This document shows, piece by piece, positions 4,874 to 13,516 of a DNA stretch of 64,000 nucleotides; the first letter of the stretch is position 1; every line of letters begins with the position of its first letter. Source of the DNA: Candidatus Latescibacterota bacterium. Lineage in GTDB: Bacteria > Krumholzibacteriota > Krumholzibacteriia > WVZY01 > JAKEHA01. The notes beneath the pieces are model-generated. The model saw only the letters and a program-made list of their open reading frames with translations, did not search any database and had not been told where the DNA came from. Location of the stretch: assembly GCA_963707635.1 (NCBI GenBank), contig OY970173.1, positions 448,001 to 512,000 on the forward strand, written 5' to 3'. A program made the translations under genes and the position numbers.

Positions 4874-4953
4874 TAAGTCTCACCCCATCAATGGCTTATT
4901 CGCCGGGTCCGGGGAAGAAAAGAGTTTCCATTCCACCCCGAAACCGCTAGGTT
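4874..4953 (+). promoter_or_regulatory. Putative promoter module of dciA-gyrB (copy 1 of the shared gyrase-operon module)
   Basis: TAAGT-N15-GCTTA, TCCGGG, A-tract, TTTCCA-17bp-TAGGTT; 47/80 ungapped identity to 13437-13516. Confidence 0.65.
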
Positions 4954-4961
4954 TAGACGGT

Positions 4962-5267
4962 ATGACGCGGCGTTCCTTCGCCCGAATCGGGGATGTCCTC
5001 CCGTCCGTGCTTCGAGACCTCGGGCTCGAGAAGCGATTCAGCGAACGTCACATGGTCGAGAAATGGGCCGGCGTCGTCGGCCCCGAGCTGGCCGAGCGCG
5101 CCCGCGCGACGCGCTACGAGAACGGAACGCTCTTTGTCCGCGTTGATCACGGCGCGTGGATGCAGGAGCTGCACTTCATCGAAAAGGACCTGGTGCGGAA
5201 GCTCCGCGCCGCGTGCCCGGACGTCGACCTGGTGCGAATCAAGTTCAGCGCCCGCGAAATGGAATGA
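4962..5267 (+). CDS. dciA: DUF721 / DciA-family protein (replicative helicase loader)
   Basis: IGDVL...W..VVG..LA...GTLFVRVDHGAWMQEL pattern; typical position between recF and gyrB. Confidence 0.8.
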   Translation: MTRRSFARIGDVLPSVLRDLGLEKRFSERHMVEKWAGVVGPELAERARATRYENGTLFVRVDHGAWMQELHFIEKDLVRKLRAACPDVDLVRIKFSAREME

Positions 5268-5413
5268 CGCGGCCGAGCCGGGACCGGCGCCCCGCGTAGA
5301 ATGAGAGCCGACGCATGAGAAGCGGAGAAGAATCGCGCGGACCGGGTCGCGTACCAGACGCGCCTCCTCCGGTATCCGGCGGGCCGGAGCGGCCCATGAC
5401 TGGAAAGGTCGAG

Positions 5414-7315
5414 ATGACGCAGGAATACACAGCCAAACAGATTCAGGTGCTCAAGGGGCTCGAAGCGGTGCGCAAGCGCCCCGCGATGTACATCGGGAGC
5501 ACCGACATTCACGGCATCCACCACCTGGTCTATGAAGTGGTGGACAACTCGGTCGACGAGGCGCTCGCCGGGCATTGCAAAGAGATCACTGTCACCATCC
5601 ACGAGAACCACGTCGTGAGCGTCGAAGACGACGGCCGCGGAATCCCCGTCGACATGCACCCGACCCAGCACCGTCCCGCGGTCGAGGTCGTCATGACCAC
5701 CCTGCACGCCGGCGGCAAGTTCGACCGCGACTCGTACAAGGTGTCGGGCGGTCTCCACGGCGTCGGGGTTTCGGTGGTGAACGGCCTGTCCGAGTGGCTC
5801 GAGGTGGAAATCCACCGCGACGGTCGGCGCTACCTGCAGAAGTATGAACGCGGGATGCCGGCCTACGACCTCAAGGAACTCGGCGCCACCGATCGCCGCG
5901 GCACCACGGTGTCGTTCCTCCCCGACTCGCAGATCTTCGAGAAGATCGACTTTCAGTACGAGACCCTCGCCCAGCGTCTGCGCGAGCTCGCGTTCCTGAC
6001 CAAGGGCCTGAAGATCACGTTCGACGACCAGCGCCTGCAGAAGCCGCGCCGTCAGGTCTTTCAGTATGAAGGCGGGATCGTTTCGTTCGTGAAGTACATC
6101 GACACCGCCAAGACGGTGATCACGCCCCAGCCGATTTTCATCCAGGCGGAGAAAGACGGCATCCAGGTCGAAGTGGCGCTCCAGTACACGGACTCCTATG
6201 CGGAGAACGTTTTCTCGTTCGCGAACAACATCAACACCATGGAAGGCGGCACGCACCTGGTCGGATTCAAGGCGGCGCTGACCCGCACCATCAACAACTA
6301 CGCGGCCAGCGCGAACCTGTTCAAGAAGGAGCGCGTGACCCTGGGCGGCGACGACGTGCGCGAGGGGTTGACGGCGGTGGTGAGCGTCAAGATTCCCGAA
6401 CCCCAGTTCGAGGGCCAGACCAAGACCAAGCTCGGCAACAGCGAAGTGAAGGGAATCGTCGAAGCGGTCGTGGGCGACGGCTTGAAGGAGTACCTCGAAG
6501 AAAACCCGTCGTTCGCGAGGTCAATGGTCGAGAAGTGCCTGGCCGCGTACGGCGCGCGCGAAGCCGCCCGCAAGGCGCGCGACCTGGCGCGCCGCAAGAC
6601 CGCGCTGGAATCCGCCTCGCTCCCGGGCAAGCTCGCCGATTGCGCATCGCGCGACCCGGCGCTGAGCGAGCTCTACCTCGTCGAAGGCGATTCCGCCGGC
6701 GGGTCGGCCAAGATGGCGCGCAACCGCGAGTATCAGGCGATCCTGCCGCTGCGCGGCAAGGTGCTGAACGTGGAGAAGGCGCGGCCGGACAAGGTCTTCT
6801 CCAACGAGGAGATTCGCAACATCATCACGGCGGTCGGAACCGGAGCAGGCGAGTTCGACATCAGCAAGGCGCGCTACCACAAGATCATCATTATGACCGA
6901 TGCCGACGTCGACGGCGCGCACATCCGCACGCTGCTGCTCACGCTGTTCTACCGCCACATGAAGCCGCTGATCGAAGCGGGCTACGTCTACATCGCGCAG
7001 CCCCCTCTCTTCAAGCTCAAGAAGGGCAAGAAAGAGGTCTACGCATACAACGACGAGGACCGCGAGCGCATCATGAAAGACTGGGGCGGGTCCGACGGGG
7101 TCTACCTCCAGCGCTACAAGGGTCTGGGCGAAATGAACGCCGAACAGCTGTGGGAGACCACGATGGATCCGGAGGCGCGGACGATTCTCAAGGTCGACGT
7201 GCAGGACGTCGTCGAGGCGGATCGGATCTTCTCCATCCTGATGGGCGACGAAGTCGAGCCGCGCCGCGAGTTCATCCAGGAGAACGCGCTCTCCGTGAAG
7301 AACCTCGACGTGTAA
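5414..7315 (+). CDS. gyrB: DNA gyrase subunit B
   Basis: [62 protein letters not shown] 5414 after GGAAAGG (5396 is an alternative). Confidence 0.98.
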
Positions 7316-12873: not shown

Positions 12874-12949
12874 GGGCGAGGGCGGCGAGGTAATTGTAAT
12901 CGAAAGCCAGGGTTGCTGTCACTGCGCCATCCTCGGATATAATCAAGTC

Positions 12950-13399
12950 ATGAGTCTCCCCCTGTCGCATCGAATCGGCCCCGCGTCGCCGGAGGATCTG
13001 CCCGAGGTTCACGCGTTGCTGCGAAGCCACGGCCTGCCGACCGAGGGCCTCGAGCCGTTCATCGACACACTGCTCGTTTCGCGCTCACGCGGACAAATCA
13101 TCGGGTGCGCGGCACTCGAGATCTACGGCGCCGCGGCGCTCTTGCGATCGGTGGCGGTGGACGTCGGCTGGCAGGGGCGAGGACTCGGCGCAGATCTGGA
13201 GGAAAAGGCGCGACGGCTCGCTCGCGCTCGCGGTGCGCGCGAGATATTTCTGCTCACCACTACCGCCGCGGAGTACTTCGCGCGTCTGGGCTTTGCGCGC
13301 TGCGCGCGGGAAGATGCGCCGGAGGCGATGCGGAAGTCGCTGCAATTCACCACCCAGTGTCCGTCGAGCGCGGTCGTGATGCGCCGCGCGCTGGAGTGA
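12950..13399 (+). CDS. GNAT N-acetyltransferase, ArsN2-like
   Basis: LLRSVAV, QGRGLG, LLTTTAAEYFARLGF, C-terminal CPSSAVVM; TATAAT 6 nt before ATG 12950. Confidence 0.8.
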   Translation: MSLPLSHRIGPASPEDLPEVHALLRSHGLPTEGLEPFIDTLLVSRSRGQIIGCAALEIYGAAALLRSVAVDVGWQGRGLGADLEEKARRLARARGAREIFLLTTTAAEYFARLGFARCAREDAPEAMRKSLQFTTQCPSSAVVMRRALE

Positions 13400-13436
13400 C
13401 GATCGGCGCTCCCGGAATGACCCGGGAAACAGGCTG

Positions 13437-13516
13437 TAAGTTGTTATGACTTAATGCCTTGCAGCATGGTTCCGGGCGAAAAAATGGTTCCCATTCCTCC
13501 CCAAACGCTCTATTAT
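13437..13516 (+). promoter_or_regulatory. Putative promoter module of gyrA-rex (copy 2 of the shared gyrase-operon module)
   Basis: TAAGT-N15-CCTTG, TCCGGG, A-tract, TTCCCA-17bp-TATTAT; aligns ungapped with 4874-4953. Confidence 0.65.

Follow-up and report, generated by a model that had tools for sequence, protein, structure and literature searches.

In Escherichia coli and Salmonella, gyrA and gyrB are split genes with separate promoters that are activated by relaxation of DNA (PMC8359277, PMC8422995). Salmonella tolerates the split as well as an operon arrangement (PMC8359277), and FIS is the nucleoid protein cited for the E. coli gyr promoters (PMC4096756). In Streptococcus pneumoniae, induction of the gyrA promoter (PgyrA) by relaxation requires a DNA bend (PMC4096756). 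No sequence rule yet predicts how gyrase promoters sense relaxation (PMC8422995). The present analysis concerns the two gyrase transcription units, dciA-gyrB and gyrA-rex, in a stretch of 64,000 nucleotides (contig OY970173.1, positions 448,001 to 512,000; hereafter the window) and an 80-bp promoter module that precedes each of them. The genome belongs to the Candidatus Krumholzibacteriia lineage; its close GyrA relatives bear the names Candidatus Krumholzibacteriia or Latescibacterota.

Single upstream IHF sites at sigma-70 promoters are present at lambda PL and Mu Pe, and sigma-54 promoters also use IHF. A further example is E. coli ilvPG, with a single IHF site about 90 bp upstream of a sigma-70 promoter and no obvious enhancer protein (PMC10783518). 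In E. coli, IHF sites are made up of WATCAA, a TTR that follows after four bases, a pair of A/T steps with a spacing of nine bases and an optional A-tract, and the prolines of IHF intercalate at these two steps (PMC1874591, PMC8421141). Rex operators follow the consensus TTGTGAA-W4-TTCACAA (PMC2883068). The parts of the module discussed here are all of known kinds (IHF site, UP element, Rex box); it is their combination that is undescribed. No report of the phased module or of Rex acting on gyrA is among the papers listed in a literature search outside which most subscription papers and regulon supplements lay, the latter being of possible relevance to Rex; nor do PMC1175088, PMC1784095 and PMC11894529 describe a gyrase promoter with a phased IHF site.

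The account that we favour, and consider probable though well short of secure, is that both gyrase units share a sigma-70 promoter layout with a phased, IHF-like bend site. Such a layout would resemble ilvPG in having a single site and no obvious enhancer protein, and would differ from it in the predicted position of the site (near -74, or -63 or -84), in its conserved helical phase and in that the target is gyrase itself. It would resemble the pneumococcal curved-DNA sensor in that an upstream bend is proposed for the response of a gyrase promoter to topology; there the bend is intrinsic and serves gyrA only (PMC4096756), whereas here a protein-induced bend is predicted at both units. Split genes with separate promoters are shared with E. 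coli and Salmonella, and both E. coli gyr upstream regions contain GTTTACC, loosely like the GTT of the -35 here. Unlike the promoters described below, those of E. coli match neither of our matrices (core 1.9 and -5.6 bits; palindrome 7.3 and 7.7 bits).

The promoter layout at the two gyrase units

The genome studied comprises 3,203,431 bases, and both strands were scanned at every position. Window positions 4874-4953 and 13437-13516 are identical, without gaps, at 47 of 80 positions. This count had been made by hand in a sequence-only reading of the window and came out the same on recounting. Each 80-mer is the best match of the other, itself apart, in the whole genome (next best 42 and 40). 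The gain from the flanks is small: 58/120 when 40 nt upstream are added and 54/120 when 40 nt downstream are added.

Both copies, on the plus strand, have the same parts in the same order. A 25-bp pseudo-palindrome (4874..4898 before dciA-gyrB, 13437..13461 before gyrA-rex) is followed by an A-tract (4915..4921 and 13479..13484) that is likely a proximal UP element, by G and a non-consensus -35 (TTTCCA at 4924..4930; TTCCCA at 13487..13493), and by a -10 hexamer of the form TAnnnT (TAGGTT at 4948..4953, 8 nt before the dciA ATG; TATTAT at 13511..13516). The site stands 74 nt before the -10 and the spacer is 17 nt in both, again as first noted. Hexamers 17 bp apart with an A-tract upstream are what a sigma-70 promoter with an UP element would look like. 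The genes served are dciA (4962..5267; PF05258, E 6.5e-21) with gyrB (5315..7315; Pfam), and gyrA (13645..16083; PF00521, PF03989) with the abutting rex (16084..16713; NCBIfam NF003993, over cut-off). The units are indeed separated by opposite-strand genes, two of them, between the end of gyrB at 7315 and the start of gyrA at 13645. Upstream of the dciA-gyrB module a recF gene is called, and both gyrase sites sit just behind the end of an upstream gene. As a side observation, the in-frame ATG at 5315 would add a proline-rich N-terminus of 33 amino acids (window 5315-5413) to GyrB, before the conserved start at 5414; by eye, a similar stretch is present in other genomes of the genus and not outside it.

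Sixty relatives were searched for GyrA and GyrB. This gave 47 promoters anchored on the -10 hexamer, 17 of gyrA and 30 of dciA-gyrB, all within the order; one gyrA row (G016) is cut before the site, so that 46 were scored. The gyrB promoters of G008, G010, G011, G016 and G022 were left out at contig ends, and G031 was not scorable. Conservation in relatives, which the sequence-only reading had set as a check on its proposal, is borne out: the 25-bp site, A-tract, GTT-type -35, 17-bp spacer and TAnnnT are kept upstream of dciA-gyrB throughout the order and, in genomes in which the dciA-gyrB-gyrA-rex operon has split, upstream of gyrA as well. TATTAT, used as the anchor, is present in 16/16 gyrA promoters of the genus. 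With the plain pattern TAA-N4-TT-N7-AA-N4-TTA, the best site in 43 promoters is at 74 nt in 22, at 84 in 10 and at 63 in three. A matrix trained on the sites of 39 relatives (four spacings set by hand, two rows omitted, this genome excluded) reaches at least 10 bits in 45 of the 46 promoters, at 74 nt (27), 84 (11), 85-86 (3), 63 (2) and 98 (2), a result that is partly circular; of the six sites left outside the training set, five have a distance of 74 nt and one of 84 nt. The two sites of this genome, which was excluded from training, score 10.6 bits before dciA-gyrB and 24.1 bits before gyrA. The distance between site and -10 thus shifts mostly by helical turns (63, 74, 84-86 nt), with the reservation that the relatives are not independent and that 84 nt is essentially the spacing of one family.

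At the level of bases much less is kept. In 12 gyrA and 13 gyrB promoters with the 74-nt spacing, taking a base as kept at 70% or more in both sets, only 16 of the 47 shared bases are retained: from the site TAA, a single A and TT; the A-tract (in the orthologue promoters A makes up 64-91% of the letters at each position from 33 to 27 nt before the -10); GTT; an A six bases before the -10; and T, A and T of the -10. The blocks first singled out as shared therefore fare unequally. Site letters, A-tract, GTT and -10 recur in relatives; the GG.TCCGGG block and most of CATTCC.CCCC do not. We also considered concerted evolution of the two promoters and rejected it, because identity within a genome (13 pairs, mean 35.5, range 23-47, this genome highest) is not above that between genomes (mean 34.3, n=211).

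The gap between the -10 and the dciA ATG is 6-11 nt in 30/30 genomes, and 8 or 9 nt in 26 of these. Such a fixed short gap predicts a leaderless dciA mRNA and indirectly supports the promoter call. In G027 dciA stops after 31 codons, possibly through an assembly error. Outside the order, 25 genomes from six other families were scanned over roughly the 1.2 kb that precede gyrB (495 nt in one of them), and none showed the module, the highest core score being 11.3 bits.

Among about 6.4 million positions of the genome, the gyrB promoter comes 2nd with a core matrix built on 14 gyrA orthologues (35.0 bits, next 14.1); with a matrix built on 10 gyrB orthologues of the genus, the gyrA promoter comes 2nd by a narrow margin (18.0, next 16.5). 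When core and phased site are required together, three loci pass: gyrA, dciA-gyrB and, weakly, an efp-type gene, the product of which we take to be EF-P. The likely efp promoter (genome 2215260, minus strand) has a weaker form of the core and a site at 85 nt. The topA upstream region, which the sequence-only reading had named as a further place to look, has neither a core promoter match nor a phased site. A generic 74-nt rule for all promoters was tried and rejected: 142 other sites are spread with no excess at 63, 74 or 84 nt, and the atp promoter region, which in this genome has a site 74 nt before a TATTAT, does not keep that spacing in relatives. Judged from sequence, the gyrase-specific feature is the phased combination of parts, not the palindrome itself.

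The ancestral arrangement was likely a dciA-gyrB-gyrA-rex operon that was later split, the gyrA promoter having likely arisen at that time. The genes gyrB and gyrA are adjacent in 17/19 genomes of the order outside the genus and in 24/25 other genomes of the class, the remaining one having both at contig ends. In the genus, 11 genomes have the two genes on a single contig, at a distance of 1.6-9.6 kb; in G020 the distance is about 67 kb. Throughout the order, gyrA is followed by rex in every genome in which the two are assembled (in G012 and G013 rex matches in two pieces, possibly assembly errors). Short junctions in unsplit gyrB-gyrA operons carry no module, while all 16 fully readable split gyrA promoters do. 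Independent splits in the genus and in G020 were considered and are not shown, as a GyrA tree of 30 rows and one outgroup allows a single origin (support 78/86). The gap itself (window 7316-13436) is a variable cargo site within the genus, filled here by a pyridoxal-phosphate aminotransferase-type gene, an unassigned gene of 593 amino acids, a kinase with PD40 repeats, and arsN2. The last is co-oriented with gyrA and stops 37 nt short of the gyrA module, so that transcripts may read through; with a TATAAT 6 nt before its ATG at 12950 (window 12916-12950) it is a second predicted leaderless gene.

The 25-bp site and the proteins that might bind it

The site follows the pattern TAA-N4-TT-N7-AA-N4-TTR. 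In the unsymmetrised profile its right half reads W-A-(A/T)-C-A-A-N4-T-T-R; the commonest letter agrees with the IHF consensus (PMC1874591) at C, A, A, T, T and R, and is A or T at W. The 3' half of the copy at 4874..4898 reads C-ATCAA-N4-TTA, or 8/9 letters of that consensus. TT at positions 8-9 (52%, 67%) and AA at 17-18 (81%, 69%) are 9 bp apart, like the steps kinked by the prolines. The site resembles those of E. coli (WATCAANNNNTTR and the H sites of lambda attP) in its C-A-A-N4-T-T-R half, in its TT and AA steps, in an A/T-rich left arm and in being placed just upstream of sigma-54 promoters. It differs at the left end where, instead of a run of 4-6 A, there is a conserved TAA (84%, 96%, 94%), which is a second TTR on the other strand and makes the site pseudo-symmetric.

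The sequence-only reading took this palindrome as part of a dedicated cis-module, possibly bound by an unknown factor. The genome argues otherwise. At 14 bits the site matrix finds 104 positions; at 16 bits there are 44 intergenic matches, against a mean of 3.7 (maximum 8) for 20 column-permuted matrices. The roughly 100 IHF-type sites before unrelated genes are not confined to genes of gyrase, topoisomerase or DNA repair. For ten of 209 sites, a sigma-54 motif that points outward stands at a distance of 15-40 nt, where 0.41 would be expected and an inward control gives 2; the expectation is a genome-wide motif rate and understates the rate in promoter regions. One of the sites is the weaker relative that had been reported at 37413-37431. 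It is real: an IHF-type site of 12.1 bits at 37407..37431 on the minus strand, before the gene at 36721-37257, with a sigma-54 -24/-12 motif (37360-37375, minus strand) 31 nt downstream. The matrix, rebuilt from 45 sites, was also applied to lambda attP and E. coli oriC. In attP the exact-consensus site beside the att core, presumably H', ranks 1st of 5,973, and the other two consensus sites 32nd and 46th. Because of the hundred or so copies, the sigma-54 enrichment and the recovery of the attP site, the palindrome is likely a genome-wide IHF-type site and not a dedicated gyrase operator. What survives of the dedicated cis-module is the module as a whole: a genome-wide scan finds the palindrome at many unrelated loci, and the full phased module at the three named above. 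A palindrome match of 11.3 bits (354-378) also lies in the dnaA flanks (100-450, 1944-2500), where several 9-mers resembling DnaA boxes mark a likely oriC.

Three proteins of the genome belong to PF00216. One is HU-like and two, L061 and L062 (genome 901199 and 1925915), are closest to IHF-beta in NCBIfam. In IHF, it is Arg46-beta that reads TTR. This residue enters the minor groove of a lateral arm (PMC8421141), and Arg42, Glu44 and Arg46 are beta-specific (bioRxiv 10.1101/2024.06.24.600358). A Glu-x-Arg in both paralogs aligns with Glu44/Arg46 of IHF-beta and is present in 29/30 and 20/20 of their homologues. There is no alpha-type partner among the three, and apparently none accompanies the two paralogs across the class. 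Unlike E. coli IHF, with one alpha and one beta subunit, the candidate here would consist of two beta-like subunits. With Glu-x-Arg in each, both arms would be read as TTR, giving a symmetric TAA...TTR site; the two paralogs may thus define a symmetric IHF code.

A Rex-like box on gyrA only

The predicted start site of gyrA is closely followed by a Rex-like box of 18 bp (13526..13543, plus strand). If a Rex operator is taken as the 18-bp TTGTGAA-N4-TTCACAA with up to about three mismatches, the gyrA boxes of the genus qualify: all 16 of its gyrA promoters have one, 13-16 nt past the first base of the -10, that matches 10-12 of the 14 canonical letters (11-12 in 14 promoters, 10 in two including this genome, no site of which exceeds 12). 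By contrast, no box of at least 10/14 is found in the 13 dciA-gyrB promoters of the genus, nor is there a box in the gyrA promoter of G020, while four operon-type or G020 dciA promoters reach 10-12/14. The box is like known Rex operators (PMC2883068) in its span, intact right half and letter count, and in its position at the start site of an operon encoding Rex; it is unlike them in a left half of the TTGA-N-AA type, and the first gene controlled would be gyrA. The lineage form TTGA-N-AA-N4-TTCACA-A/T recurs with 0-1 mismatch before the atp operon in 22/30 loci, the pattern being partly derived from the atp site of this genome (genome 2940008). These atp boxes occur across the order, in some genomes in two copies, and a further box stands before a gene with an ATP-cone-like start in this genome (further genome positions of the box are 2746989 and 2604252). 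A DnaA box was considered for the TTTCACAA motif and is disfavoured, since the atp operon has the 18-bp pattern in full.

From the pattern of boxes it is likely that Rex represses its own operon, gyrA-rex, and since the box is found on gyrA and not on gyrB in the genus, the two units are likely not regulated identically. This bears on the idea that the module keeps GyrA and GyrB stoichiometric. The idea is weakened by the restriction of the box to gyrA-rex, by the lack of concerted evolution and by the tolerance of Salmonella for both gene arrangements (PMC8359277).

Further downstream, a second conserved motif of the gyrA leader, GGTACAAGGCGTC (13596..13608, plus strand), has a single strong copy in the genome. 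Its core GGTACAAG is present in 13/16 gyrA leaders of the genus, at distances from the -10 of 71-97 nt that differ by steps of about 12. A structured RNA in this leader is not claimed, as it folds no better than shuffles (z -0.47), and an Rfam scan of eight gyrase loci gave 0 matches at E up to 1. A resembling motif between dciA and gyrB is not conserved. Elsewhere in the genome an intergenic repeat of about 60 bp is scattered over at least five places (559507, 1104697, 1109316, 1600066, 1764526).

How the module might act, and what it would mean

Several suggestions can be made regarding the mechanism. In the favoured account each unit has a sigma-70 promoter with a weak -35, and a site for an IHF-like protein, the candidate being the pair of IHF-beta-like paralogs, in helical phase with the A-tract. 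With a start about 7 nt after the -10, the centre of the site would be near -74 (or -63, -84) and the A-tract near -42. The bend would fold upstream DNA and the A-tract onto RNA polymerase and so stimulate, in a phase-dependent manner, an otherwise weak promoter. This would tie output to DNA topology and to IHF occupancy alike at both genes. Rex would add autorepression and a redox input on gyrA-rex only.

A number of points weigh against this account. Where the consensus WATCAA has its T, A is the usual letter here (57% A, 25% T), and over 45 sites the mean match to the IHF consensus is 6.1/9 (gyrB copy 8/9). Under a strict intergenic filter, two of 13 sigma-54-like promoters have a site upstream and three have one downstream. 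The top lambda attP site scores only 4.7 bits, and the site of E. coli oriC is not among the top 10 of the matrix in a 30-kb stretch. Two gyrA promoters, those at 98 nt, are out of phase. When built on 16 gyrB promoters from outside the genus, a matrix places the gyrA promoter no higher than 18th, and copying of the operon promoter is the simplest account of the gyrA promoter, to which convergence is the alternative. Both paralogs score under the NCBIfam equivalog cut-off for IHF-beta (99.1 and 104.8 against 115 bits), for which reason we file them as IHF-like and not as IHF, and Arg42 is replaced in both by His or Lys. In Dickeya, an ihfA mutant had no change in topoisomerase gene expression (PMC7826290). 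Finally, activation of ilvPG by IHF depends on negative supercoiling (PMC10783518), whereas gyrase homeostasis calls for the reverse; hence an IHF effect at gyrase promoters could go in either direction.

The strongest alternative, which we nevertheless regard as improbable, is that IHF represses or only insulates. The bend would block or pin supercoils arriving from upstream co-oriented genes (recF; arsN2 or other cargo) or occlude contacts of the alpha subunit, and gyrase transcription would rise when IHF leaves or DNA relaxes. Bound IHF can turn twist waves into writhe (PMC10783518), upstream co-oriented transcription feeds the gyrB promoter (PMC8359277), and both sites are directly behind the end of an upstream gene. 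However, a strict helical phase with the -10 is more than insulation alone would call for, and the site ends about 17 nt before the A-tract, with no overlap with the core promoter.

Considerably weaker is the case for an operator of a dedicated factor co-regulating gyrA and gyrB for subunit stoichiometry, for which Deinococcus DdrO and its RDRM would be the model. The site is present in fixed phase at both promoters in 45/46 cases, and its outer half-sites, GTAAC/GTTAC, resemble an inverted repeat. Against this stand the copies before unrelated genes, the sigma-54 enrichment and the attP recovery; the centre is A+T-rich and degenerate, and the end is TTR and not strictly TTA. Nor does co-regulation fit a Rex-like box on gyrA alone and promoters that do not evolve in concert.

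We give just as little credence to a protein-free reading, in which supercoiling is sensed by an intrinsic, phased bend made up of site, A-tract and A-rich spacer positions. There are A/T peaks about 30, 17 and 6 nt before the -10, and the pneumococcal PgyrA, whose induction depends on a bend (PMC4096756), offers a parallel. Yet what is conserved is not A-tracts but the letters TAA...TTR at a fixed span of 25 bp, and sigma-54 promoters show this pattern too.

Ordinary convergence of two housekeeping promoters, each with a common IHF site and no shared regulation, is the least credible: the low count of conserved shared bases (16/47) and the atp site at 74 nt would fit it, but the atp spacing is not kept in relatives, other sites show no excess of the preferred spacings and cross-trained matrices rank the partner promoter 2nd genome-wide.

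A more far-reaching form of the favoured account is that an order-wide gyrase promoter with a symmetric IHF-like bend was copied whole when gyrBA split, and that gyrA then came under direct control by Rex in one genus. We put this forward tentatively, as a chain of steps that is rather unlikely to hold in full. If it does hold, Rex on gyrA wires the NADH/NAD+ ratio to the supply of gyrase, and so to supercoiling of the chromosome, through transcription of one subunit.

The letters and spacings that are kept, variants by whole turns included, are fixed by the 46 natural promoters, which also name a candidate protein. They also offer a natural case of an operon split in which the promoter layout was retained on both halves. 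Beyond this, a symmetric IHF code is predicted that would be tied to two beta-like subunits, and there may be a direct redox input to gyrA; Rex autorepression of gyrA-rex would uncouple gyrA from gyrB under changing redox state.

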